Shown here: in pieces, positions 601 through 23,168 of the stretch | Position numbering within the stretch: the first letter of the stretch is position 1 | How the letters are laid out: every line of letters starts with the position of its first letter | From: an uncultured Candidatus Peribacteria bacterium | Lineage (GTDB): Bacteria; Patescibacteriota; Gracilibacteria; Peribacterales; Peribacteraceae | Assembly: GCA_964418005.1 (NCBI GenBank) | Contig: CAYQJY010000001.1 | Location: 1 to 31,334, forward strand | Length of the DNA stretch: 31,334 nt | Reading direction: 5' to 3' | The notes under the pieces: generated by a model | Told to the model about the DNA's origin: nothing | Databases searched by the model: none | The model's input: only the letters and a program-made list of their open reading frames with translations | Position numbers and translations under genes: made by a program

Positions 601-3600
601 TTATGAGACGGCGGCGTAGCGCTCCAATATCTCGTCGACCCGCTGCTGGAGCAGCGGAGACATGGTTACGGTAATGGGTAATGCGACGAGCTGATCGCCG
701 ATTTTCAGCTGCACTTTCTCGCGTCCGGGGTAGAGCTGGAACACGCCTTTGAGGTCGAGGAGGAGTTGCTTCGGGGCGCGAGGGGGGAGGGTGACCGTGT
801 GAATGGAAATTGATGCAGCTTCAGCAGACGTCTCCTTCGAGACGGCCGACACGTCATCGCCCCCGCTCTCGAGGCCAAGTGTTTTCATCGGTTCGTCGAG
901 TGGCATGCCGCGCAGAATCCACGCGCTCACGGGGCCATGGAATTCATTCGAGACGTCCACAGCTTTTATTACTGCCTTTGCTCCGGCGACGACGTCCCCT
1001 TCCTCATCCACGTGGTCGATGTCGCCTTCTTCTTCCTTGCGGACACGGACGATGCCGCGTTTTGCCTCTTCCTCGTCGAAGAGCCCATCGTCTTTCGCTC
1101 GTTGAATCATTGTCGAGAGGGACGCGCGCTTTACCGCATCGACCTTCATTTGCAGTGCACCTCCTCGCTGGTCGATGATGCCGCCGACGACCAAGACGGT
1201 GTCGGGCTGTTCGAGCACTGCTGCCGATTCAGCATAGGTCTTTGGAAAGAGCGTAATTTCCATCTTTCCGGTCGGGTCTTCGAGCATGACAATGGCCATT
1301 GTGTCGCCCTTCTTTGTACGCAGCTTTTTCACGCTCTCGACGATGCCGGCGAGCGTTGCCTTTTTCCCGATATTCTTTGTCGTGAGCTCCTCGATGAGCT
1401 GCGCTTTACGGGCAATGTACTTCTTCAGGCCCGCGAGCGGGTGGCTGGAGACATACAGTCCGAGTGTTTCTTTCTCCCATTCCAACTTTTGCTGCGCAGT
1501 GGCGGGTGGTGTCGATGGGAATTCGATCACCGAGCGTTCGACAGCCGTCTCGAGCGCGTCGAGCAGTGAACCCTGCCCCGTGCCAGCGCCCTCCGCTCCC
1601 TTGCCATAGTCTACGATGGCGCTGTAGTGCTCCACGATCGTGCGACGCTCGGCGAACGAATCGAGTGCGCCCGACTTCCCGAGCGATTCAAGGAGCTTCT
1701 TATTCAAAATCTTCATTGGGAGGCGGCTCGCGAAATCCTCGATGCTCGCAAACCGACCGCCGCGCTTCCGCTCGGCAATGAGCTCGTTGACTGAGCCTTC
1801 GCCGACGCCCTTCACGGCCGCTAATCCGAATCGGATGGCCCAAGAGTCAGACTTTTCTTTCGGCGGTATGACGGTGAACGCACTGAACGACTCATTCACA
1901 TCCGGCGGTAACACCTGGAGGCCCATCGAACGCGCTTCCTCGATCTCAATCATCACGCGTTCCGTATCGTCGGCATCGGACGAGAGGAGAGCGGCCATGA
2001 ATTCCGCCGTGTAGTTCGCCTTGAGGTAGGCGGTTTCGTACGCAATACGCGCGTACGCTGCGCCGTGGCTCTTATTGAAGCCGTACCCGGCGAACGGCGT
2101 GATGACATCGTCGAAGATCTGGATCGCAAGTTTCTCTTCATACCCCTTTTCCACCGCGCCGGTAATGAATTTCTCGCGTTGGGCGTCGAGCTCCTTCTTG
2201 ATTTTCTTGCCGATAGCGCGGCGCAGTAAGTCAGCCTCACCGAGCGAGAACCCGGCGAACACACGTGCCATTTGGAGGATCTGCTCTTGGTAAATGCCGA
2301 TGCCAAAGGTGGGTTCTAAGACCGGGCGGAGGTCCTCATGAAGGTATTTCACTTCCTCTTTGCCGTGCTTACGCTTGATGAAGCTGTCGATCCATTCCAT
2401 CGGTCCCGGGCGATAGAGCGAGACCATGGCCGTGATGTCCTCGAATTGCGTCGGCTTGAGTTGCTTCAAGTAGCGGCGCATACCCGCGGATTCCAATTGG
2501 AACACCCCCGTCGTGTCGCCGCGTTGCAGGAGCGCGAAGGTCGCTTTGTCGTTCATAGGGATCTTCGCGATCTCGATCGTCTCGCCACGCGTGTGCTCGA
2601 TGACCTCGAGCGCCGTCTGGATGACGGTGAGGTTCATGAGACCGAGGAAGTCCATTTTCAGGAGTCCGAGCGACTCCAGCGGTTTCGCCGAGTATTGGGT
2701 GATGATCGTATGCTCGTCCTTCGGAGCCTTTTGGAGAGCTGTGTACTTCGTCGTCGGCTCCGGAGCGATGATGACGCCGCAAGCGTGGACAGAGACGTGG
2801 CGCGCCTTACCTTCGAGCTTCAGCGCCGCATCGATGACTTTTCGATAGAGTTCGTTACTCTCGTACGCGGACTTCAGCTCAGCTGTCTCGAGCGCGTCCT
2901 TCAGCTTCGTGCCCGGCTTCTCAGGGATGAGTTTCGCGAGACTGTTCATCTCGAGGAAGGGGATGCCGTACGCACGGCCGACGTCCTTCACCGCGGCCCG
3001 GGCGGCCAACGTTCCGAATGTACAGATTTGTGCCACGCGATCCTCGCCGTATTTCTGACGGACGTAGTCGAGTACTTCGTCACGGCGATTATCCGCAAAG
3101 TCTAAATCGATATCAGGCATCTGCACGCGCTCCGGATTGAGGAAGCGCTCGAAGAGGAGCCCGTGTTCCATCGGATCGATGCCCGTAATGCCGAGTGCAT
3201 ACGAGACCATCGACCCTGCGGCCGACCCGCGTCCGGGGCCCACGGTAATACCGCGTTTGCGCGCTTCGGCCATGAAGTCTTGGACGATGAGGAAGTACCC
3301 CGAGAAGCCGACTTGGATGATGACGGAGAGCTCGTACTCCAACCTCTCGCGGTATTCCTGCGATCCATTCGGATACACACGTTTGAAGCCCTCATCTGCC
3401 AACTCGCGCAGGTACGATTCTTCTGTCTTCCCCTTGGGGATGGGGAACACGGGGATGCGGTTCTTGCCGAACTCGAACGTGACATTGCACCGGTCGGCGA
3501 TGACACGCGTATTTTCAAGCGCTTCAGGAACGTGTGAGAATGCCTTCTCTACTTCCTCGAATGGTCGCATCGAGAAGTCGCTACCCTGCATCGAGAAGCG

Positions 3601-4311
3601 TCCCGGGTCGGCGATATTCGCGCCCTTTTGGATGCAGAGAAGAATATCGTGTGCTTCGGCGTCGTCTGCGCGGCAGTAGTGACTGTTGCATGTGGCTACG
3701 ACAGGGACGCCGAGCTCTTTCCCATGCCGAATGAGCTGTTGGTTCGCTTCCGCTTGGCCGTTCACGCCAGGGAGATCCATCAGCTCGTAGTAGACATTCT
3801 CTTTCCCGAACCATTTCCAGTAGTGCTTCGTGAGCGCCGTGATCCGCTCCGCGTCTTCTTGGAGCGCTGCTTGCCCGATGGCACTGGTAATGGGGCCAGT
3901 GAGACAGAGAAGGCCTGCTCCATACTTTGTGAGAAGCTCATCATCCACACGCGGCTTGTAGTACATGCCGTCCATCGCACTGATCGTCGCGAGCTGGAGG
4001 AGGTTTTGGTATCCCTCGTTCGACAGGGCGAGCAGCGTGAGCGGGAAACTCTTCGTATCCGTGCCGCTCTCGCGATCGTGGCGCGTGCGCGCGGCGACGT
4101 ACGCTTCAAGTCCGAGGATCGGCTTGAGCCCGTGCTTGCTCGCATACTGAAAAAATTCGACGAGGCCGTACGTGTAGCCCTTGTCCGCCAAACCGACTGC
4201 CGTCTGGCCTAATTCCTTCGCGCGCAGGACGATCTCCTCCGGGCTAGGGAGGGCTTCTAACAGCGAATACGTGCTGTGGGAGTGCAGGTGGACGAAGTCC
4301 TCAGGTTTCAC
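601..4311 (-). CDS. dnaE: DNA polymerase III alpha subunit
   Basis: 1236 aa. N-terminal PHP (FVHLHSHSTYSLL), GRGSAAGS, FERFLNPER, catalytic PDIDLDF and LLKMDFLGL, YGFNKSH, OB fold (AGIVESVKKLRTKKGDTMAIVMLEDPTG). GTG start. Confidence 0.98.
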   Translation of the reverse strand: MKPEDFVHLHSHSTYSLLEALPSPEEIVLRAKELGQTAVGLADKGYTYGLVEFFQYASKHGLKPILGLEAYVAARTRHDRESGTDTKSFPLTLLALSNEGYQNLLQLATISAMDGMYYKPRVDDELLTKYGAGLLCLTGPITSAIGQAALQEDAERITALTKHYWKWFGKENVYYELMDLPGVNGQAEANQQLIRHGKELGVPVVATCNSHYCRADDAEAHDILLCIQKGANIADPGRFSMQGSDFSMRPFEEVEKAFSHVPEALENTRVIADRCNVTFEFGKNRIPVFPIPKGKTEESYLRELADEGFKRVYPNGSQEYRERLEYELSVIIQVGFSGYFLIVQDFMAEARKRGITVGPGRGSAAGSMVSYALGITGIDPMEHGLLFERFLNPERVQMPDIDLDFADNRRDEVLDYVRQKYGEDRVAQICTFGTLAARAAVKDVGRAYGIPFLEMNSLAKLIPEKPGTKLKDALETAELKSAYESNELYRKVIDAALKLEGKARHVSVHACGVIIAPEPTTKYTALQKAPKDEHTIITQYSAKPLESLGLLKMDFLGLMNLTVIQTALEVIEHTRGETIEIAKIPMNDKATFALLQRGDTTGVFQLESAGMRRYLKQLKPTQFEDITAMVSLYRPGPMEWIDSFIKRKHGKEEVKYLHEDLRPVLEPTFGIGIYQEQILQMARVFAGFSLGEADLLRRAIGKKIKKELDAQREKFITGAVEKGYEEKLAIQIFDDVITPFAGYGFNKSHGAAYARIAYETAYLKANYTAEFMAALLSSDADDTERVMIEIEEARSMGLQVLPPDVNESFSAFTVIPPKEKSDSWAIRFGLAAVKGVGEGSVNELIAERKRGGRFASIEDFASRLPMKILNKKLLESLGKSGALDSFAERRTIVEHYSAIVDYGKGAEGAGTGQGSLLDALETAVERSVIEFPSTPPATAQQKLEWEKETLGLYVSSHPLAGLKKYIARKAQLIEELTTKNIGKKATLAGIVESVKKLRTKKGDTMAIVMLEDPTGKMEITLFPKTYAESAAVLEQPDTVLVVGGIIDQRGGALQMKVDAVKRASLSTMIQRAKDDGLFDEEEAKRGIVRVRKEEEGDIDHVDEEGDVVAGAKAVIKAVDVSNEFHGPVSAWILRGMPLDEPMKTLGLESGGDDVSAVSKETSAEAASISIHTVTLPPRAPKQLLLDLKGVFQLYPGREKVQLKIGDQLVALPITVTMSPLLQQRVDEILERYAAVS

Positions 4312-4317
4312 TCCTGC

Positions 4318-4323
4318 AGTATA
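4318..4323 (-). promoter_or_regulatory. -10 box TATACT 6 nt before the dnaE GTG (leaderless-type promoter)
   Basis: Minus strand reads TATACT-gcagga-GTG. Confidence 0.55.
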
Positions 4324-4359
4324 CCCGACTTCGCCCCTGCGGGGACTTCGTCGGGCAGG
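4324..4359. repeat. REP-like hairpin CCCGAC-TTCG-(CCCC tgc GGGG)-ACTTC-GTCGGG-CAGG
   Basis: Outer stem 4324-4329/4350-4355, inner stem 4334-4337/4341-4344. Ends in GGGCAGG like the element at 27458-27480. Confidence 0.6.
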
Positions 4360-4374
4360 TCCTGCATCGCCTAG

Positions 4375-5910
4375 CTAGGGTAGGATTTCGAAGCAACTTC
4401 CGTTGAGACTGGCGCCATCCACCTGAATGCACGCCGCCTCGGCGCACTTCTTCCAACGGGGGCTATCCTCAGTGTCGCTGAGGAAGGAGCCGTTGGTGTA
4501 GGGGAAGCATTCGTCCTGCAGTCCAATGCGCACGACTTGCTCAAGGATCTTTCCGCACGCACGGAATGCGCAAGTACGACGCAGGAAATACGCGAGTTCG
4601 AGGACGAATGTTCGCACTCCCTGCTTCAAGCTTGCGAGGCGCGAGAGTTCCCCGATCGAGGCGCGCATGTCGCTGAGAGCATCCGCGATTTCGAGTTGGC
4701 TGTCCGCCGCTTCGGGGAAGATGGCCCCCTCTTTGCGTCCTTGGATACCGCTGATGGAGCGGAACGTGAGACGGAATGATGAGCGTGTTGTTCCGAGGAG
4801 TATTTCGTCGTGCTCGCGCTGCTTCAGCTCGTCGCTGTCGGGTGGAAGATCTTCGTAGCGTGCCCACTCGGCAGGGAAGGTGCGGGAAAAGCCGTCTTCG
4901 ATGCGCTTCTCGAGGAAGTCCGAAAGGAGGCGAAGATGATCGGTGGTGTAGGAGAATGTTCCGCGGATGGAACGCTTCGGGATCGTGGGAGTTGTGGTAT
5001 TACGGATGCACTGTCCCTTTCCCTTTGATGCACAGAATTCGTTCGAACCGCACTTCAAGCCGTCATCCTCGCTGCAAAGGCCTTCCTCTTCTTGGCAGCC
5101 GATGATTGTGTGGTGTTCCCGATCGGAGACTGAGTCGTTATCAAACTCCTGTGAGCCGTCGAAGCCCGTGTGTTCCGGGAATTGACCTACGGTGGCCTCG
5201 CCGAGGAGTGGAATGATCTCGCGGAACGCGTCGATCTCCTTTTCTATTTTCGCCAATCCGTCACGTTCTGCCTGTGCAAAATCCAGGCCGTTGCCGTTGA
5301 TGGTATCGAGAATCGAGATGTCACACCCGTATCCTGTCATGCGTGGTGGAGTGTAGTTTGAGTGGAACGGGCAGAGGGGTTCAGTGAGTTCTTCGACTGG
5401 CTCTTCGTCGAAGAGGTAGAAATCGTCCCACGTCTCGTCTGCGTAGCTGCCGTCGAGGCTTCCTTGCGAAAGGTGATACAGGCGGGCCTGCAAGAAATTC
5501 ATCGTCGATTGCAGTCGCATGATGGCGATAAACGAACCGCGCTCGAGTTCTTGATCCAACGCACGGCGCACGGCGTCCATTTTGCATTCGATGAGGATTT
5601 GATCGAAGCGGAGGCAGGCCGTCGTGCTTGGTAGATCGGCGGAGCGAAGCGTGAGGCGCTGCTTCGAGTCGATGAGGCGTGCAAACGTTGCCGCTACTTG
5701 TCTTGTCCAATCGCCGAAGTAGAGCGGGAAGAAGTCGGTATTTGTTTTCGCTTCCGCTGCGTAGCGAATGCCAGCATCCGCGCGTTCAAGCACGTTCTTC
5801 ACGTAGTGCTGGGAGATTGGCTCGACATGTTTCAGCTGCTCGCAATCGACTGCCGCATGTGCGCCAAGCGGCAGAAGAAGGAGGCCTGTGAGAAGAAGAA
5901 GTTTTCGCAT
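4375..5910 (-). CDS. Exported Cys-rich hypothetical protein (511 aa), gene 5 of secreted operon
   Basis: Start MRKLLLLTGLLLLPLGAHA|AVDC is a Sec signal peptide. ATG overlaps the upstream TAA (TAATG). 16 Cys by my count, including a compact C-x6-C-x7-C-x5-C-x7-C module. Confidence 0.85.
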   Translation of the reverse strand: MRKLLLLTGLLLLPLGAHAAVDCEQLKHVEPISQHYVKNVLERADAGIRYAAEAKTNTDFFPLYFGDWTRQVAATFARLIDSKQRLTLRSADLPSTTACLRFDQILIECKMDAVRRALDQELERGSFIAIMRLQSTMNFLQARLYHLSQGSLDGSYADETWDDFYLFDEEPVEELTEPLCPFHSNYTPPRMTGYGCDISILDTINGNGLDFAQAERDGLAKIEKEIDAFREIIPLLGEATVGQFPEHTGFDGSQEFDNDSVSDREHHTIIGCQEEEGLCSEDDGLKCGSNEFCASKGKGQCIRNTTTPTIPKRSIRGTFSYTTDHLRLLSDFLEKRIEDGFSRTFPAEWARYEDLPPDSDELKQREHDEILLGTTRSSFRLTFRSISGIQGRKEGAIFPEAADSQLEIADALSDMRASIGELSRLASLKQGVRTFVLELAYFLRRTCAFRACGKILEQVVRIGLQDECFPYTNGSFLSDTEDSPRWKKCAEAACIQVDGASLNGSCFEILP

Positions 5911-8453
5911 TAGTTCACGAGGTTGAGCGGGCACATATTCGTCGGAAACTTCACGGTGATCGCTTCATGGAGGAGCATGTTTGCGAGTCCAACGACCTCC
6001 GAGAGCGTTCTAGTACCGATGCGCAGGTATTGCCCCTGCATGTCCGTGCCGATGCGTGAGCCGAGCCCCGCTGCGAGCTCTTCCGTGAGAAGCGTCGCGT
6101 CGCGCTGCTCCTGAGCGCTGTCGATGAGACTCAGACCTGTCGTTGCCGCGTCTTCCAAGGGAGTAGCAAGACGGCGCGTTGGAGCGAAAGCACACAGATG
6201 AGGCGGGGTCGCCGCAGGCAATCCTTGGAGTTGGCAGAGTGCATCCTCCAATGTGCGGAGGACCATGAGCGGTCGATATGACGGCAGAGGAGGATGCGTT
6301 GCGGGCACCGAGCGCACGATCTTCGCAAGTGCTTCGCCTGTGGCAGGATTGTCATAGGGGAATGCACTGTCGCCAACCGTCGCTGGTGACCGTCCGCCCG
6401 TGAGCCTGTGGAGCTCAAGGGAGTCCTCGACGCACTGGCCGATGTAGCACGCGTTATTCCCGATCGTGTTCTTGTATTCGGTCAGTGTGCCGGGCATGCA
6501 GAGCGGAGTGTGACGCTCGATCGTCCGTAATCGTGCGGCGAGGCGCGGGTCCATTTTCTTTTCGTCTGTAGCCTCTGCGCAGGAGGCGGGCACGCCCGCA
6601 GGATTCACATCGGTGACAGAGACGAGTTTTGCGAAGAAGCCTGCCGGATACGAACGCGAAACGGGGCATCCGGGGAAGTTCTTGCCGTCGAATTGTACCG
6701 CCCTGCAGCCGAAATCGGCGCCGAATTCGCCGCAAACCTGCGAATCGATCGTGATACCGTCGATCACAACAGGTTCCTTCACTCCATCGCCGTCTGTGTC
6801 GCGCTGAAAGACGCCGTCATCTTCCATTGCCTTGCATGCCGCACGGTAGGCTTCGCCTTCAAACCGACAACATTGAGCAGCGGCTTGGTCGAACGTAAGT
6901 CCGGCATAGACAGAATCTTTTGCGGGTAATCCGCAGTTTTGATAGGCGTGCACCAGTTCGTGGAGCACCAGGTAGTTCGTGATACCGATACCGGCACCGT
7001 TACTGATACAGATATCGATCGAACCATTCGGTCGTTTGGGGCTTGTATTGGCTATTTCCCCGCCGCCGAGGCCACAGTCATCGGCACAACGGATATTCAC
7101 ATCACACCGAGTGATAGGAGCGTTCGGGTTTTCGTTCTTCCAGTCGATCTCACGACAGACGTCCGCCCCCGCGATGGTGAATGTCGGGGCATCGTCGAGT
7201 GTGCACGAAACCAGCGTGATCACATTCTCCCCGTTATTCGCGGATGCCGGCTCGGGGCACTGCTCTTCGCTCGTCGCGTGGAACGCACGGCAGAGGTACC
7301 CGCGCTGCGCGAGTGCCATAGAGCAGAGGCCGCGTCCATCAATCAATCGCTTGGTACCGGAAGGCAGGGGATTCCCCTCCTCGTCGGAGGAATCGTCCGT
7401 CGCCGGTTCCGGCGGATAGCGTCCACCGAGAATCGGCTTGTCGGTTTCATCCGTTTTCACGCTGAGGAGGGCTGGAAGGAGCGGTTCCATTGGGTAGCGC
7501 CACGCCAAACCAACATCTCCGAGAGGATGCTGGTCGGGGCTGCTTCCACTGTCGGGCGCTTTATCGATGCGCGCCCAGAGGAGGACGTTTTCCGGAAGAA
7601 TGTCTTGTAGTTCGTCTGGGAAAAGAACGTACGCTACCTCGTTGTTGCTCAAGGGGGGATCGAAGTCGTTGCGGTCCTTCGGGAGTACATTCCAGATGTC
7701 CTTTAGTGCTCCGCCGTGCGGGAATGTGTACTGCTCATAGAAGAGGTACTGCCGCTCCGTCCCTGGTTCGCTGTGACCATCTTCGAACGGTGGGGGATAC
7801 GTAGGGTTTCTATCGCCAGCACGTAAGCGTGCGCCGTACTGGAAGTACCAGACGAATCCCGTACGCCATTCTTCGTTCCCATCCTCAAGGGCTATGGCGA
7901 GTTCTTCGAACTTCGGACGGAGCGAATCTGCTTCGTCGTCCGAGAGTGCCTTCGTTCGAATGAGGATGGCGCCCGTGGCGGCCTGTTGGATGCTTCCCGT
8001 TCCGGCACGCCAAATATTAATGATGCCCGAGAGGTCTGTGGCCAAGTGAAATGGGCGTCCTGGTATTTCCGAAATAGGCAGCTCTTGGGCTGTTGCAATA
8101 CGCTGGAGGTTTCGGCCGAAGGTTCTCAGTGCTTGTTCTTCCTTCGCCAGTGCTCCGATGTTTTCCAGTGCTTCCGAACAACCGCCGAGCGTTCGTTCTT
8201 GCGAGTCACTCTCACCCGTGCCACACGCACCTGATGCATCGTTGAGGACGGCGGCTTTCATTTGTTCGTCATTGAGATCCCAGCGCTCCCTGTACACGCC
8301 CTGCAAGTACTTTAGAACCGTTTTATCCATGTTGGGTGTACTGAATTCTTCCTGCACTTGTGTGCGAAAGAGGTTGTACAAGTTTTTCTCCGCTGCGAGG
8401 GTCGAGAGCGGGAAGAGAAGGAGAAGGCCTGCGATCGTGAGCACGCGTTTCAT
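5910..8453 (-). CDS. Exported Cys-rich 847-aa protein with putative zinc metallopeptidase (HExxH) domain, gene 4 of secreted operon
   Basis: Signal peptide MKRVLTIAGLLLLFPLSTLA|AE. 25 Cys by my count. YLVLHELVHAYQNC (H498-H502) followed by CCRFEGEAY (E532). TGATG overlap with the upstream gene. Confidence 0.85.
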   Translation of the reverse strand: MKRVLTIAGLLLLFPLSTLAAEKNLYNLFRTQVQEEFSTPNMDKTVLKYLQGVYRERWDLNDEQMKAAVLNDASGACGTGESDSQERTLGGCSEALENIGALAKEEQALRTFGRNLQRIATAQELPISEIPGRPFHLATDLSGIINIWRAGTGSIQQAATGAILIRTKALSDDEADSLRPKFEELAIALEDGNEEWRTGFVWYFQYGARLRAGDRNPTYPPPFEDGHSEPGTERQYLFYEQYTFPHGGALKDIWNVLPKDRNDFDPPLSNNEVAYVLFPDELQDILPENVLLWARIDKAPDSGSSPDQHPLGDVGLAWRYPMEPLLPALLSVKTDETDKPILGGRYPPEPATDDSSDEEGNPLPSGTKRLIDGRGLCSMALAQRGYLCRAFHATSEEQCPEPASANNGENVITLVSCTLDDAPTFTIAGADVCREIDWKNENPNAPITRCDVNIRCADDCGLGGGEIANTSPKRPNGSIDICISNGAGIGITNYLVLHELVHAYQNCGLPAKDSVYAGLTFDQAAAQCCRFEGEAYRAACKAMEDDGVFQRDTDGDGVKEPVVIDGITIDSQVCGEFGADFGCRAVQFDGKNFPGCPVSRSYPAGFFAKLVSVTDVNPAGVPASCAEATDEKKMDPRLAARLRTIERHTPLCMPGTLTEYKNTIGNNACYIGQCVEDSLELHRLTGGRSPATVGDSAFPYDNPATGEALAKIVRSVPATHPPLPSYRPLMVLRTLEDALCQLQGLPAATPPHLCAFAPTRRLATPLEDAATTGLSLIDSAQEQRDATLLTEELAAGLGSRIGTDMQGQYLRIGTRTLSEVVGLANMLLHEAITVKFPTNMCPLNLVN

Positions 8454-9202
8454 CAGTCAGAGAGGTCACGAAGCGATCCACGGGAGTCCCAAATTTTCGG
8501 CATGCAGGAAGCGGCTTCGGAGATGAGGCCGGTGGCATTTCGCAGATCGAGTGAGGCACGCTTCAGGCACTCAAGTTCAGCGGCGAGGGGCCGGAGGCGA
8601 TCGATACCACCGATGAATGCGAGGGTGCGCTCGAGGGTGGGCCGTGCGGTCGCAAGTTCCGACTGGATGATTCCGCGCTGGCGCGAAGCCTCTTGCGTCT
8701 GAGCTCCCGCATTCATACTCACCATTTTGGTTCCCGTCGGTGTTTCCCATGGGGTGCCCATTTCTTTGACGATCGTCGGCTCGAGAAACTTACGGCGCTG
8801 GAACAGGGAGCATTCGTAGACGCGGAGGTATTCAAGCAGGACCGATGAAAGGTCGGCTTCCGAAAGCTCGGCTCCACGCGATGGGCCCCACTCCGGCAGT
8901 TGATCCGCAAGTTGTTGCAGCTCGCTACTTGGTTGCAGCAGACCGCGGTAGTCGTTTGCTGTGCACTGCAGCGGACGAGTGTGGATCGAGGAAATTTGTT
9001 CGAAGTGTGCATCGACGACGCGTGCGATCGTTGAATGGTAGACGTTCGACGCGGATTCAATGGCGAGCGACGCGAAGACGGTGTCCTCTCCGGTGCAGGG
9101 AGGAAGTTTGAGGATGCTGTTGCTCGGGTCTGGTTCAGCGAGTCCGCATCCTGTGAGGAGCATCGCGTATGCAGCGCCCATGGCGACGGTTTTCCTATTC
9201 AT
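8453..9202 (-). CDS. Predicted lipoprotein, helical hypothetical (249 aa), gene 3 of secreted operon
   Basis: MNRKTVAMGAAYAMLLTG|C has a positive N-terminus, hydrophobic core and LTGC lipobox. Five further Cys. 8-nt overlap with the upstream gene. Confidence 0.8.
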   Translation of the reverse strand: MNRKTVAMGAAYAMLLTGCGLAEPDPSNSILKLPPCTGEDTVFASLAIESASNVYHSTIARVVDAHFEQISSIHTRPLQCTANDYRGLLQPSSELQQLADQLPEWGPSRGAELSEADLSSVLLEYLRVYECSLFQRRKFLEPTIVKEMGTPWETPTGTKMVSMNAGAQTQEASRQRGIIQSELATARPTLERTLAFIGGIDRLRPLAAELECLKRASLDLRNATGLISEAASCMPKIWDSRGSLRDLSD

Positions 9203-10040
9203 TGCATTCGGCTTGGAAGCAGGGGATGTTCTTCAGTCCGCCGAGCATGCGCACCGCCTGCCAGATCGGCTCGATGAGCGGGAAACGGAACTGAACGAGG
9301 AATTCTTGGAACATGCCCGCGAACTGCGCGAGCGAGCGGTACGACGCGTCGTACGAGATTGTCAGTGTCAGGAGTTGCATCTCGCGTTGGACGAGGGCTC
9401 GTCTGGCTGCTTGGCAGTTGCCGGGGAGCGTGTTCGTGATGTCTGGGGTCACGTTCCGGCAGCCGTCCATGACAGGGAAGGTCATCGGCAGGCATCCGTC
9501 GATTTCGATGGTAATTGTTTCACCGGATGCCTTCTTCGGCGATCTCGCTGCAAGCTCGCACACCGCACGAAGCCTGCACTGCAATGCTCGAAGCGTTTGC
9601 ACCGTGGGTTGGATGAGATCGCTCGTCGGCGTTTTCCGCACTTCGAAGATGCCGCTGCGGGGGAGTTTCACACACGACTCCTGGATCTCCGGCGTGTTGT
9701 TTTGGCAGAGGAGATCGCTTTCGCTCTGTGAATCCATATCGTCATTCGTCCACGTCTCACCGTCGAATTCATCCGATGGTGATGTCCATTCATCGTCACC
9801 GGTTTTGACCCACGGGTCGCTGTTATCGTCATAGAACACGCTCGTAACGGGTGCGTCCTCGGCGCGGGGGCGACCGAAGAGAACCGCACGTTCCAGGCGT
9901 TGTTCCCGGCCGAATGCATCATAAAGATCGCTGAGGCATTCGGCATTCGTCGGTGCATCCACAGCATTCTGCGCCCATGCGCAGATCGGCAGGAGGAGTG
10001 AGCAGAGAAGTGGGCCTGCGATGAGACGGCGGGCGATCAC
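9195..10040 (-). CDS. Exported Cys-rich hypothetical protein (281 aa), gene 2 of secreted operon
   Basis: Signal peptide ending AWA|Q. 10 Cys in the mature part. GTGA overlap with the upstream stop. Confidence 0.82.
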   Translation of the reverse strand: MIARRLIAGPLLCSLLLPICAWAQNAVDAPTNAECLSDLYDAFGREQRLERAVLFGRPRAEDAPVTSVFYDDNSDPWVKTGDDEWTSPSDEFDGETWTNDDMDSQSESDLLCQNNTPEIQESCVKLPRSGIFEVRKTPTSDLIQPTVQTLRALQCRLRAVCELAARSPKKASGETITIEIDGCLPMTFPVMDGCRNVTPDITNTLPGNCQAARRALVQREMQLLTLTISYDASYRSLAQFAGMFQEFLVQFRFPLIEPIWQAVRMLGGLKNIPCFQAECNE

Positions 10041-13000
10041 GGGAGAAGGCGAATGGTTGGGAATGACTGGAGAGGTGAAGGGTCATCGTCGTGCGGCTTG
10101 AGAATCAGCGGATCGACGCTGCCGAGCGGCGGTGGTTGTGTGACGCGGAGGATGCGTACTTTCAAATCGTCGATCGGTGCATCGTTCGATCGTGAGCCAA
10201 CAACCTCCCATCGGAATCCGGGATCCGTGCGTTCGGCATTGAGGATGTGGCACGCTTCGTCTTCCGGGAGGCAGACAGTGGGCTCGCCACGACGTGTTCC
10301 GACCGACTCGAAATCTTCCGCCAACTGAATGAGCGGGCGAGAGCCGATGCGTTGTGCGCGCTCGAGAAGGTCCATCTCTACCTGTTTGCATGGCAATCTA
10401 TTGAAGTCGTAGCATTTCATCCCTTCTTTGAATTCATACTGGCGTTCGAATTGTTCTTCTCCAGGCTTGAGCGGCCCGATGCTCTTCCAAAAATCTGCAT
10501 ATTGCTCATTCATTTCGGAGACGATTCTTCCAGCAAAGAAGAGAGAGTCTCGAGCACTATTCAGCGTTTCGTTACTCAAAGGCTCCGGTGGTTCCATGCT
10601 CGGCGGCTCTTGAAGTTCATTGCGAACTTCCGGTAATTGTCCGAGGACATCTTCCATCGCGGCGCGGATATCTCCGACAGGAGGAAGCTCTGCCAGTTTC
10701 TCCGTCTTCGGCGGCACTGGAATGTCGATGCGGATCTGGATGGGTTTGAGTACCGGCATTTTTAACGTGCCCGACATCGCTGCTATCGCGGAAAAATCAA
10801 TGATCACGTCCTCTGGGCGTTGTACGAGAGGGAGCCGTGGAAGATTCAGCTCGCTCGTTTCAACCTCATTTGGTTTGGCTTGTCTATATCGTGATTGCAA
10901 CCACGGATCGAGCAGCGAATAGATCGGTGACGTGAAGCGCTGGTTCATGCACCAGGGCAGGTTGGAGCGGTCGGTCATTGTTGCGATCTCGCCCTGGATC
11001 TCGCGCCAGAGTGGCACCAATTCCTGCTCCACGCGTTGCCGGCCTTGGACGATTTGGCGGAGCTGTTCTTCGTGATCTTTGAACCACTGTGCAATCGGTT
11101 CAAGCAGTCGATGTTGTAGGTCGAGGATGGCTCCCGCAGTTTCCGAGGTCTCGGCACGCAGTTCTCTGTAGTCGTCGATGCGCTCGGCATACTCCTCGAG
11201 GCGCTCCATAATTTTTTTAATGTCTTCCGGGACGTCGTCGCAGGTTTTGACGATATTTTTGTTCTTGTACCAGGTGCACCAGTCTGCTGCGCGGGCGCGG
11301 AATTCGGCGGGCGAGCCCATGGGGACGATGACAGGAATCGGCTCTTCTTCCACGTGCAGAAGGATCGATCGTTCGATGTACGCCAATGCCGTTCCGAGCA
11401 CATCTTCGTCCGCTTCCACCTGTAGTTCGATCCTATCGCTGCGGTCAGGGCGTTCTGTTGGATCTTCCGTACCGCTGACGGACGTGAGGAACGGATCGTT
11501 CGGATCGAGACCCATGAACCACGCACTGGGGAGCACGATGCGCAGGACTGGTGCACGCATGAGAGCGGCCATACGCGTCTGTTGTTCCTGCCACCACCGG
11601 GTGTACGCACGCGGATGGCCCGTGTCGTCGAATGCGCGCATGAGGTTACTTTCGGCGAACAAATGCTGTTCGTTGATCTGTGGTGTTGCAGTGAGCGTTC
11701 CATCGTCCAGTTCGTCGAAGGCGAGGAACACATTCCCAAGGTCGCTGTCGTACTGCCCCTTGAAGAGTTTTTCGTTGATGAATGAGAACGCTCCCCCGAG
11801 TTTTTTGTACCAAGTATCTTCTTCGACGTCGAATGCTCCGTTCTCGTCGTTGAGGCCCCCAGGCCGTTGATTCCCCGTATTCGTCGGATCCTTGTCGTCG
11901 ACGTCCGTCTCTTTGTACTCGCCTTTGCCTTGCTGCGTTTCTCGCATGTTCTCAACGTCGATGTTTATGACACAGCGTCGGTCGTTCACTCCGGTCTGAC
12001 GCTTCTTCGGATCGAACTCGTCGTACAGTCCGAAGCAGGTCGTTTGAAAATTCTCCGCGGCACGATCGCCATTCGGGACCTTGTCCCCCGGCATTGCTGC
12101 GCGCGTGAACGACGCATCCGTATAGAGCCTGTAATACGAGCGATATTGTCCGCCTCCCGGTGGATGGAGGCACGCATCCGGGTCGCCATTCTCCGGGTTG
12201 TTTGGGCAGCGACACCGTTGTCCTTCACACTTGCGTGCGTTCGCCCATTCCTCGAGTGGGGGGTCGGCGACCTGGCATGCTGCGTGAAAATTCTCCTCAT
12301 TTATTTCTTCGTCCGTGCATATGTAGAACAGCGCCTCGCGATTGCAGACGAAGATATCTTCGTCCCGCGTTGCTTCGAACCAGTTGCCGTCTGCATCCTG
12401 TTCCCAGTGATCAAACACCGTGATTCTGCGCGGCTGTAGATCTGCACAGTTCTGGTAGAGGAAGGCGTTGGCATATTGGCAGAACTCAAAACACGAGTCG
12501 GCGTTCTCGGTTTCCACGGAGTCTTTGTCCCACGGAAGGAGTGCGGCGTCGGGCACGAGCGGTGTTGGGGGCCATGCTCCGCCCTCCATACGCCAGCGGC
12601 ACGTCGGATCTCCGACGTAGGGGTACGCGAATGTGTGCCAGTTCGCCTGATATTCGATGAATTCTGTGCCGTTGATATCTACCCGTGGTGGGAAAACAGG
12701 AGACCAGATCATGCGCTGCGTTTGATCGATACCCTCCTCGCACGCTGTCGAATACCCTTGGGTTTCGTTCGGAAAGAAAAAATCGTTGTCCTTGTTGTCA
12801 TCACCATCGACGTCCGTGCGCACACCCATGCCAGAGGGAATGTCTTCCCACCAGTTGTGCACGCGGCCAGGCAATCCCTCAACGACAGCGATGTATGGAG
12901 CAACACTGAGATCTTTATCCCATCCGCCGCACTGTGCTTCTTCGAGGTACGGGGGAATGGAATTCTTTGGATCGTTTCCGCGAAGCAATTCTTTCATCTG

Positions 13001-13111
13001 CTCCGCAGAGCTCGGGACGCCACTGGGAATGCTGAGCACTGGTCGCGCGGAGGTCGAAGCGCCGACCGTTAACAGTGCCACCAGAAGCCCCATGCTTGCG
13101 ATTGCACGCAT
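10037..13111 (-). CDS. Large exported Cys-rich/coiled-coil hypothetical protein (1024 aa), gene 1 of secreted operon
   Basis: Preferred start ATG 13111 (MRAIASMGLLVALLTVGAST, signal-like) with TACAAT 7 nt upstream; the ORF track extends it to GTG 13171. 22 Cys, long amphipathic helical segment, Pro-rich C-terminus. Confidence 0.85.
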   Translation of the reverse strand: MRAIASMGLLVALLTVGASTSARPVLSIPSGVPSSAEQMKELLRGNDPKNSIPPYLEEAQCGGWDKDLSVAPYIAVVEGLPGRVHNWWEDIPSGMGVRTDVDGDDNKDNDFFFPNETQGYSTACEEGIDQTQRMIWSPVFPPRVDINGTEFIEYQANWHTFAYPYVGDPTCRWRMEGGAWPPTPLVPDAALLPWDKDSVETENADSCFEFCQYANAFLYQNCADLQPRRITVFDHWEQDADGNWFEATRDEDIFVCNREALFYICTDEEINEENFHAACQVADPPLEEWANARKCEGQRCRCPNNPENGDPDACLHPPGGGQYRSYYRLYTDASFTRAAMPGDKVPNGDRAAENFQTTCFGLYDEFDPKKRQTGVNDRRCVINIDVENMRETQQGKGEYKETDVDDKDPTNTGNQRPGGLNDENGAFDVEEDTWYKKLGGAFSFINEKLFKGQYDSDLGNVFLAFDELDDGTLTATPQINEQHLFAESNLMRAFDDTGHPRAYTRWWQEQQTRMAALMRAPVLRIVLPSAWFMGLDPNDPFLTSVSGTEDPTERPDRSDRIELQVEADEDVLGTALAYIERSILLHVEEEPIPVIVPMGSPAEFRARAADWCTWYKNKNIVKTCDDVPEDIKKIMERLEEYAERIDDYRELRAETSETAGAILDLQHRLLEPIAQWFKDHEEQLRQIVQGRQRVEQELVPLWREIQGEIATMTDRSNLPWCMNQRFTSPIYSLLDPWLQSRYRQAKPNEVETSELNLPRLPLVQRPEDVIIDFSAIAAMSGTLKMPVLKPIQIRIDIPVPPKTEKLAELPPVGDIRAAMEDVLGQLPEVRNELQEPPSMEPPEPLSNETLNSARDSLFFAGRIVSEMNEQYADFWKSIGPLKPGEEQFERQYEFKEGMKCYDFNRLPCKQVEMDLLERAQRIGSRPLIQLAEDFESVGTRRGEPTVCLPEDEACHILNAERTDPGFRWEVVGSRSNDAPIDDLKVRILRVTQPPPLGSVDPLILKPHDDDPSPLQSFPTIRLLP

Positions 13112-13118
13112 GGAGTCG

Positions 13119-13124
13119 ATTGTA
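13119..13124 (-). promoter_or_regulatory. -10 box TACAAT 7 nt before ATG 13111 (leaderless-type promoter of the secreted operon)
   Basis: Minus strand reads TACAAT-cgactcc-ATG. Confidence 0.55.
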
Positions 13125-13199
13125 GCGCAGCAGGATGCCATTTCTTCGCGAGAGACTGCGGTTTTCACCACAGACGTTTCGTTTGTCCAATGTTTCTGT

Positions 13200-13249
13200 T
13201 GTCATGGTTCGTGGCTCGCGGCAGCGGCCGCTCGCACCTCACCATGACA
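13200..13249 (+). repeat. REP-like hairpin TGTCATGG-TTCG-(inner hairpin)-CTCA-CCATGACA
   Basis: Perfect 8-bp stem 13200-13207/13242-13249. Same GTCATGG/CCATGAC stem and TTCG...CTCA loop ends as the copy at 25878-25905. Inner GCGGC/GCCGC stem at 13218-13231. Confidence 0.7.
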
Positions 13250-13296
13250 TTCGTTGGTCTCGGGAGTACTCTCAACATCCAATTTCCTTCGCCACT

Positions 13297-14157
13297 ATGT
13301 TCTCCCTCAATCGCGTCACACTCATCGGCTACCAGACCCAACCCGTCCAGGTTCGCCAAACCCCGTCGGGGACGAGCGTGACGGATCTGAACCTCGTCGT
13401 GCCGGCGCGCATCAAGACGGAGAACGGTGAGACGATCCAGAGCAAGAGTTTTCACACGGTGACGCTGTGGGGACCGGTGGCGGAAGTCGCCGGGCAGTTC
13501 ATTCGCCCAGGGACGCACCTGATGATTGGCGGGCGACTCCAGACGGACAGTTGGGAGGATGAGAAGACGGGGGAGAAGCGGTCGAAGACGAAGGTTGTTG
13601 GCAATGAAATGATTATTTTGGACCCAAAAGCTGGCCAGACGCCCGCTCCGGCGAGCGAGTCGCTCGCTGGCGGTGTGAATCGCGCGGAGGTCATCGGGAA
13701 CGTGACAAAGGATCCCGACATGCGCACGACGACGAGTGGGCAGAAGGTGCTCACAATCGGCGTAGCGACGAATGACCGCTGGAAAGACCGCCAAACGGGC
13801 GAAATGAAGGAAAAATCGGAGTTCCACAATGTCGTGATTTGGGGCTCACTTGCTGAAGATGTCGCACGAAACGTGAAGAAAGGGTCGCGCGTGTATGCCG
13901 TCGGCCGCGTGCAGAGTCGCAGCTGGGAAACGCCGACAGGACAGAAGCGCATTTCCACGGAAATCGTTGCCGACATGGTCTCGATGCTCGGTGTGAAGAA
14001 TAAGGTGGCCGACGAATCGCTCCGTGTCGATGGTGATGCATCGTTCCGTCAATCGTCGCCGAAAGAAGACTTTGCGCAGGAGCCTGCAGCCTCCGTGCCG
14101 AGCATCCCCTCGATCGAGTATAAGAGCGAGGTGAGTGTAGAGGATTTGCCTTTCTAA
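13297..14157 (+). CDS. ssb: Single-stranded DNA-binding protein with two tandem OB folds and acidic DLPF tail (286 aa)
   Basis: OB1: MFSLNRVTLIG...FHTVTLWG...GRLQTDSWED. OB2: GVNRAEVIGNVTKDPDMR...EFHNVVIWG...GRVQSRSWE. Ends SVEDLPF. Start ATG 13297 (the ORF track extends to 13135). Confidence 0.93.
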   Translation: MFSLNRVTLIGYQTQPVQVRQTPSGTSVTDLNLVVPARIKTENGETIQSKSFHTVTLWGPVAEVAGQFIRPGTHLMIGGRLQTDSWEDEKTGEKRSKTKVVGNEMIILDPKAGQTPAPASESLAGGVNRAEVIGNVTKDPDMRTTTSGQKVLTIGVATNDRWKDRQTGEMKEKSEFHNVVIWGSLAEDVARNVKKGSRVYAVGRVQSRSWETPTGQKRISTEIVADMVSMLGVKNKVADESLRVDGDASFRQSSPKEDFAQEPAASVPSIPSIEYKSEVSVEDLPF

Positions 14158-22706: not shown

Positions 22707-22733
22707 GGGACATGAGTATACTGCATGGGCATG
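22704..22733. promoter_or_regulatory. Bidirectional -10 palindrome AGTATACT between divergent ftsW and lspA
   Basis: AGTATACT at 22715-22722 gives TATACT on both strands, each exactly 8 nt from an ATG (22706 minus, 22731 plus). Confidence 0.7.
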
Positions 22734-23168
22734 CTACTGCTGTCTGTTTCCCTTGGCGCATTCCTCGCGGGCCTTTTAGCGGCGTGGCTGGTGAAATTGT
22801 TTCTCTTCACACCGATTGCCGTTCTTGGTCAGGAGATCGTTCTCCGGCATGCTGAAAATCCCGGAATAGCGTTTGGGCTGCGCATTCCGTCGCCATGGCA
22901 AGAAATTCTCATCCTCCTAGCGCTTCTCCTCGTGTTTCGTATCGCCATTCGCAGTACCACAGTCCTCTCGCGCATTGCGTATGGTCTCATTATCGGTGGG
23001 GCACTCGCAAATATCGCCGACCGCATCGTCGATGGCTTCGTGACCGACTACATTGCCGTTGGGAGCTTTCCTATCTTCAACATTCCCGATTCGTGCATCA
23101 CCATCGGCGTTTTCCTCCTCCTTGTTGAAAGCACAGGAATAGTTTCTTATATACGAAGAAAGTCCTAA
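22731..23168 (+). CDS. lspA: Lipoprotein signal peptidase II
   Basis: ENPGIAFG, GGALANIADR, VTDYI and FNIPDSCITIG (two catalytic Asp positions). Alternative ATG at 22725. Confidence 0.93.
   Translation: MLLLSVSLGAFLAGLLAAWLVKLFLFTPIAVLGQEIVLRHAENPGIAFGLRIPSPWQEILILLALLLVFRIAIRSTTVLSRIAYGLIIGGALANIADRIVDGFVTDYIAVGSFPIFNIPDSCITIGVFLLLVESTGIVSYIRRKS

Follow-up and report, generated by a model that had tools for sequence, protein, structure and literature searches.

The window analysed here is a stretch of 31,334 nucleotides (positions 1 to 31,334 of the forward strand of contig CAYQJY010000001.1, assembly GCA_964418005.1) from an uncultured Candidatus Peribacteria bacterium of the GTDB family Peribacteraceae, in which five consecutive minus-strand open reading frames (ORFs), here called genes A to E, lie between dnaE and ssb (Table 1). 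Our analysis demonstrated that these genes constitute one operon of exported, disulfide-dependent and Cys-rich proteins of no known family, with homology of all five members, a gene order that is fixed at two depths (family and class), export signals, invariant Cys residues and gain or loss as a single unit. An original prediction, made from the letters of the window, had reported five genes of the lengths given in Table 1 overlapping at every junction, and both the coordinates and the junction letters agree with that report: the shared letters are GTGA at A/B, ATGAATAG (8 nt) at B/C, TGATG at C/D and TAATG at D/E, so that all pairs overlap. The start sites chosen for A to E were those yielding a signal peptide. 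The cassette takes up 8.7 kb of a 1.09 Mb genome, whose assembly is 90% complete, and the window as a whole has a G+C content of 57%.

Table 1. Positions of the operon genes, of the domain and motif in D and of flanking features, numbered from the first letter of the window.
Feature	Position	Strand	Remarks
Gene A	10037-13111	minus	1,024 aa from ATG 13111; longest ORF reaches 13171
Gene B	9195-10040	minus	281 aa
Gene C	8453-9202	minus	249 aa
Gene D	5910-8453	minus	847 aa
Gene E	4375-5910	minus	511 aa from ATG 5910
Zincin-like domain of D	6549-7178	minus	residues ~426-635
HELVH of D	6948-6962	minus	residues 498-502, within predicted helix 492-507
dnaE	601-4311	minus	flank of operon; GTG start
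ssb	in ORF 13135-14157	plus	flank of operon
TACAAT, -10-like box	13119-13124	minus	7 nt 5' of the A ATG; read from sequence
Imperfect hairpin	4324-4355	minus	followed by TATACT
TATACT	4318-4323	minus	6 nt before the dnaE GTG
lspA (signal peptidase II)	22725-23168		in window

Export signals were judged by hydropathy in combination with conservation across orthologues. Each of the five proteins begins with a positively charged n-region followed by a hydrophobic core, which bears out the predicted export of all five and the single lipobox assigned to C (LLTG↓C at residues 15-19, with L-T-G-C at 16-19). The signal peptides of A, B, D and E are conserved among family orthologues; those of B, D and E end in AWA↓Q, LAA↓E and AHA↓A, and A has the Sec-type signal MRAIASMGLLVALLTVGASTSA. 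No membrane segment was found past residue 35 in any of the five, where the Kyte-Doolittle mean of 19-residue windows reaches a maximum of 1.37, as expected from the claim that further transmembrane segments are lacking.

Cys counts were 22 in A, 12 in B, 6 in C, 25 in D and 16 in E, in agreement with the counts first given (the 10 stated for B being the number after the signal peptide), and Cys content was 2.2-4.3% in comparison to 0-1.8% in 11 flanking housekeeping proteins. Invariant Cys residues occur in all five proteins among orthologues, as their predicted disulfide-rich nature would require, with 8 in B, 5 in C, 8 in E, 11 in D (and 10 near-invariant) and 7 in A (and 9 near-invariant). 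The number of conserved Cys is odd in both C (5) and D (21), and a disulfide joining the two proteins is a guess that could be tested. Orthologues of B within the family keep a Cys at position -3 from the C-terminus, and the near-tail Cys of C, D and E in the family, 6-23 residues from the end, are invariant. Five DsbA-like (Thioredoxin_4) ORFs are encoded in the window's genome (contigs C132, C98, C33, C87 and C40), and neither DsbB nor VKOR was found in its 90%-complete assembly. Many family orthologues of A and D, and sometimes of B, end in runs of 4-9 Ser, often after Pro-rich stretches, that could be linkers or glycosylation sites; the window's own A, B and D have no such C-terminal runs.

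Searches for known families returned little. No credible Pfam or NCBIfam match was obtained for A to E (at E ≤ 1 there was only noise), searching PDB sequences with the B, C and E profiles gave no match, no S-layer family matched any of the five, and A gave neither an SLH domain at E ≤ 1 (Pfam) nor an FG-GAP repeat. AlphaFold (AF2) models built from family alignments had a predicted local distance difference test score (pLDDT) of 79.9 for A, with a predicted template modelling score of 0.70, and a pLDDT of 74.5 for D. When these models were searched with Foldseek/VIA-align against PDB, AFDB clusters, ESM Atlas and BFVD, they found only uncharacterised orthologues and generic long-helix matches, apart from a weak zincin-like resemblance of D residues 426-635; as the models find no fold relative beyond orthologues, new folds are likely for A and D. 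The earlier claim that no family is recognisable was upheld with this one exception. In the Atlas, a protein-language search pointed weakly from D to DUF6647 and eCIS_core (score 0.81), and it yielded no lead for E. D has 54 homologues among 5.8 billion proteins, the sole name given to them being Candidatus Peribacteraceae, and among 1.84 billion representative proteins only 345 matched a B profile that included out-of-family sequences. We considered whether A to E are paralogues of one another and rejected this, since hhalign found them unrelated in sequence.

The original prediction had likened the proteins, by analogy, to TraN and TraU, and a kinship with or analogy to the F-type conjugation proteins TraN, TraU, TraH and TraW, periplasmic components of mating-pair stabilisation, would account for the general style of the locus, as both consist of several consecutive exported proteins with many conserved Cys. 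That likeness fell away on comparison. No TraN, TraU or other conjugation family was found at E ≤ 1 in Pfam or NCBIfam, no sequence or fold similarity was found, and, unlike the F-type type IV secretion system, the locus is not on a mobile element and has no secretion ATPase, coupling protein, relaxase or pilin nearby. In addition, all 49 loci have the cassette at one fixed place between core genes and base composition is uniform, and we regard this kinship as hardly credible. An origin of the cassette as a mobile element was rejected separately on the uniform composition, the fixed chromosomal position and the lack of integrase or conjugation genes nearby.

Within Peribacteraceae, the order A-B-C-D-E was identical in all 49 loci compared (48 fetched from ~40 genera, plus the window), with the same five genes and the same kinds of N-terminus, so that the conserved synteny anticipated for a real system was found far beyond chance. 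In the 11 first-batch loci with wide flanks, ssb and/or dnaE stood at the ends of the cassette wherever the contig reached (11/11). Overlapping junctions were also common in the family, at 37/47 (A/B), 34/49 (B/C), 42/48 (C/D) and 32/48 (D/E). In a phylum-wide sample, D was detected in all 11 genomes from the window's GTDB family and in none of the ~390 others, and within the family it was detected in 180 of 200 genomes, 140 of the 151 of high quality and 78 of 84 genera. Compared with the window, A to E from other genera were 22-38% identical versus 62-69% for DnaE and 55-63% for SSB; surface proteins often diverge fast.

Four family genomes that are 95-100% complete gave no matches to B or D and have dnaE directly beside ssb, 26 to ~980 nt apart, with no remnant of A to E between the two genes (loci L091-L094, genomes G495, G402, G401 and G457). 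This indicates that the five genes are gained or lost as one unit and that the set is dispensable. That they are present or absent jointly points to a single function and speaks against an essential role in housekeeping. The strong selection originally supposed for the cassette agrees with its strong conservation in a reduced genome, albeit tempered by the four genomes that do without the whole set. In genus g321, with genomes of 0.8-0.9 Mb, the set is absent in both species, and genus g364 is split by the D query into 4 genomes with and 6 without. The same evidence bears on whether A to E could be five independent exported proteins that merely keep company, neither forming a joint complex nor sharing a function. 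A to E show no relationship in sequence and we infer, rather than observe, binding among them, which leaves room for such an arrangement; it is nevertheless improbable given the strict order across family and class, the conserved start/stop overlaps and the loss of all five together.

Beyond the family, weak matches to the B profile were obtained in other families of the same GTDB class, from which 10 loci were fetched. These out-of-family loci have the same order, with a very large first ORF (4,433 and 3,870 aa in complete examples) followed by a B homologue of 196-270 aa with the same 8 Cys, and in the seven loci with contig past B there follow a C homologue, a protein of 513-676 aa and another of 390-464 aa, all with signal peptides. 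Alignment of family against out-of-family profiles with hhalign gave 98% for B (E 2e-13), 94% for C, 94% for E over 65 columns and 81% for D, with all cross-pairs below 40%. The A profile matches the giants through its core only (A ~470-870 against giant ~2050-2810; E 4e-13 to 6e-16). SLH domains are present in the giants (E 1e-21 and 1e-27), one of which also has an FG-GAP repeat, the tails of the out-of-family proteins mostly end in Cys, and the cassettes are not beside ssb, dnaE or wall genes. The extended profile detected B in 114 of the 401 genomes searched from the class, comprising 61 of 64 in the window's family, 27 of 31 in a second family and scattered cases elsewhere. The cassette, a large exported A with four smaller exported partners, is confined to Candidate Phyla Radiation (CPR) bacteria of the Peregrinibacteria type, in one GTDB class. 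A further B-family match (G619:C15:25328-25744, minus strand, E 1.5e-10) has 5 in-frame TGA codons, which suggests that the cassette may also be present in a lineage reading TGA as an amino acid.

Judged by these alignments, the window cassette is a compact, SLH-less form of a wider giant-protein cassette, and a reduced variant of it rather than a typical member. Common to both are the gene order, the A core, homologous B to E with export signals, the 8 Cys of B and tight packing. The differences are that A has 1,024 aa in the window in comparison to 3,870-4,433 aa in the giants, without SLH and FG-GAP; that the Peribacteraceae set is fixed between ssb and dnaE and has acquired a zincin-like insert in D, a 70-residue insert in B and, in part of the family, a lipobox in C; and that the near-end Cys of the Peribacteraceae proteins are less terminal. 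The undescribed cell-surface apparatus of the original prediction thus gains weight as to its surface role, since in sister families wall-anchor (SLH) domains are encoded by the first gene, the homologue of A, and loses its standing as an isolated invention. The out-of-family A homologues have bona fide SLH domains in common with the SLH-anchored surface and S-layer proteins found in monoderm and in deep-branching bacteria, from which A to E of the window differ in having none (PF00395). In the window's genome, 23 SLH matches were counted in at least 13 ORFs, all on other contigs (C3, C7, C9, C23, C27, C57, C108 and others), so that the organism makes common use of SLH wall anchoring even though the domain is missing from A to E.

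Individual proteins of the cassette differ in how far their parts are shared. A consists of an N-terminal Cys-rich beta-hairpin domain (~60-400) and a conserved core (~470-870) with a long helical hairpin. B is the best conserved member, its 8 Cys being invariant in all 36 aligned sequences from within and outside the family, and is single copy in the window's genome; its 70-residue insert (57-128) is present in 46 of 49 orthologues, and the three orthologues without it also lack the zincin-like domain of D, a co-absence that may simply follow descent. C has 5 invariant Cys in addition to the lipobox Cys and is a predicted lipoprotein in this genome, having a lipobox after n- and h-regions and an lspA gene in the same genome. 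A true lipobox after the h-region was found in ~18 of 49 C orthologues, the rest having an uncleaved-looking anchor or an ordinary signal, and C homologues outside the family look Sec-cleaved. Lipid tethering is thus a lineage-specific addition that is present in the window's own genus, and the lipoprotein tether proposed earlier holds for this genome and not in general.

The AF2 model divides D into an N-terminal helical part, a beta-rich middle, the zincin-like insert and a C-terminal helical hairpin. The insert comprises three strands, a helix bearing HExxH and a following helix bearing E532, which is conserved in 39 of 43 sequences and is, from its position, a candidate third zinc ligand. 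Its fold repeatedly but weakly resembles IrrE/ImmA (M78), SprT, DUF2268 and M61 (Foldseek E ≥ 0.6 in AFDB clusters and > 1 in PDB; template modelling scores by hit of 0.3-0.5, and of 0.36-0.52 in the Atlas), and it matches no Pfam or NCBIfam peptidase family. With these minimal zincin domains it shares a small beta-sheet, then an HExxH helix and next a helix with a conserved Glu; it differs from them in being extracytoplasmic, laced with conserved Cys and often without its catalytic residues, and in having no sequence-family match. The domain is present in 42 of 48 D orthologues, with HExxH intact in 32 and degenerate in 10 (for example KLLVH or GRLAQ), and absent in 6; the Cys around it stay conserved. 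All seven out-of-family D homologues lack the domain and none has HExxH, so that it is a lineage-specific insertion made within the family, present in the window's genus and not part of the core.

The zinc-protease motif reported for one of the five proteins is accordingly real, as HELVH in D, whereas a proteolytically matured surface layer does not describe the core of the system, the motif being degenerate in 10 of 42 carriers of a domain that is itself a lineage-specific insertion. A system secreted for attack or feeding, with the zincin-like protease of D as its active part and the other four proteins as its means of delivery, its inhibitors or its activators against surface proteins of prey or host, could be read from the intact HELVH and E532 of the window on a zincin-type strand-strand-strand-helix-helix unit, from the export of all five proteins and from a predatory epibiont among the relatives of this lineage (PMC8080830). 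We consider it highly improbable, as the rest of the cassette persists where the domain is missing (6 of 48 orthologues and all seven out-of-family D proteins) or its HExxH is degenerate (10 more), no Pfam peptidase family matches and fold E values are at least 0.6. In one genus, an A orthologue with an ORF of >1,430 aa (L038 7821-12122, minus strand; G448:C20) contains a second copy of the D 401-646 region at 32% identity, from which it follows that the zincin-like module has moved between subunits. Out-of-family D homologues (L079 11186-13159, plus strand; L078 6966-8984, minus strand) carry a DUF4215 unit (E 2e-6 and 2e-4), the Myxococcus cysteine-rich repeat also mentioned for the Cys-rich proteins of Peribacter.

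The surroundings of the operon are dnaE, ssb, murB and other core genes, with wall genes in the window, and this neighbourhood lends itself to the reading that A to E are not a contact device but a machine for building or maintaining the envelope, for instance one that assembles or remodels the wall, S-layer or secondary wall polymers, and that they stay close to murB, murG and ftsW as part of the same process. The cassette occurs in single copy and in nearly the whole family, A has a conserved N-terminal domain, the homologous giants have SLH wall-binding domains and the 23 SLH matches lie elsewhere in the genome, all of which would suit an envelope function. The set is, however, not essential, as the four nearly complete family genomes without it also lack the B family altogether; the sister-family cassettes are not next to wall genes, ssb or dnaE; and no enzyme family is recognisable except the optional and often inactivated zincin-like domain. 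We therefore hold an envelope machine to be unlikely, though worth keeping in view.

A disulfide-stabilised cell-surface complex that serves cell contact is our best reading of the cassette, held with about even confidence. In the mechanism we propose, A, which in sister families has 3,900-4,400 aa and is wall-anchored by SLH, would have shrunk in Peribacteraceae to ~1,000 aa without SLH, the cassette would have come to lie between ssb and dnaE, C would in part have become a lipoprotein and D would have gained its zincin-like domain. After Sec export and oxidative folding, the five proteins would assemble in near-equal amounts into one surface complex, held to the membrane in this genome by lipoprotein C, and the complex would serve contact with other cells or surfaces rather than essential housekeeping. 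The zincin-like domain would be an optional extra that might, for instance, trim a target protein or one of the partners. Such a role is in keeping with the host-dependent biology proposed for Peribacteria (PMC4736985) and with the giant surface proteins of the related Vampirococcus (PMC8080830).

Several points weigh against this reading. The homology of D outside the family covers 102 columns at 81% probability only, and physical binding among A to E is something we infer. The lipobox of C is the sole wall- or membrane-binding element in A to E here, and since many C orthologues lack it, the proteins may not be retained at the surface and could instead be released. Within the family, A has a well-conserved N-terminal domain, unlike adhesin tips, which are typically hypervariable. 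No host is known for the organism, and the sequencing runs with the locus (activated sludge, wastewater and groundwater) are all of DNA, with no RNA run among them. A more specific version of the contact complex, which we put forward tentatively and think may well be wrong, is a modular surface contact machine in which the four disulfide-bonded partners would form a conserved base for an exchangeable large subunit of ~1,000 to ~4,400 residues, with the compact Peribacteraceae form as a minimal working version. It would attach to a host or partner cell and be bolted together by inter-chain disulfides, such as one between C and D.

The cassette was not found described in the literature searched, where Cys-rich or huge surface proteins of Peregrinibacteria appear in general terms only (PMC4736985; PMC11573180). 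According to the main text of Anantharaman et al. 2016 (PMC4736985), Ca. Peribacter riflensis has ~20 large Cys-rich extracellular proteins with a mean of 1,655 aa and 7.2% Cys, including a 14-gene cluster, and these were proposed to act in attachment. A to E have in common with them the bacterial family, export and richness in Cys, and differ in having only 2.2-4.3% Cys and in not being mentioned as an operon in that main text. The cassette matches no described family or system and is hence new, and its function is a guess.

Signals for transcription were sought at the ends of the operon and within it. The TACAAT box would favour the 1,024-aa start of A and a leaderless or near-leaderless transcript, and the imperfect hairpin with the TATACT after it likely marks the end of the operon and the dnaE promoter. 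The hairpin has no T-tract and is thus not a canonical terminator. Lying 6-7 nt ahead of the dnaE and A start codons, TATACT and TACAAT both fit the geometry of leaderless transcripts. A consensus scan gave no minus-strand promoter or terminator match within the operon. The ORF that contains ssb has two separate SSB OB-fold matches in one polypeptide (Pfam SSB, E 5e-58), and its product is predicted to be a two-OB SSB, a type known from Deinococcus-Thermus. SSB orthologues in all family loci align from ~residue 50 on.

To our knowledge, the way in which CPR bacteria (Patescibacteria) attach to partner cells and exchange material with them is largely unknown outside Saccharibacteria. In this setting, a cassette detected in roughly nine-tenths of the Peribacteraceae genomes searched belongs to no known family and has giant, wall-anchored homologues in sister families. 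The window contributes a compact, SLH-less form of it at one chromosomal site, with lineage-specific additions and clean natural deletions. At 249-1,024 aa, the proteins of the compact form are within reach of co-expression, multimer modelling and cryo-electron microscopy, unlike the 4,000-aa forms, and species without the cassette in the same family offer a ready natural comparison.

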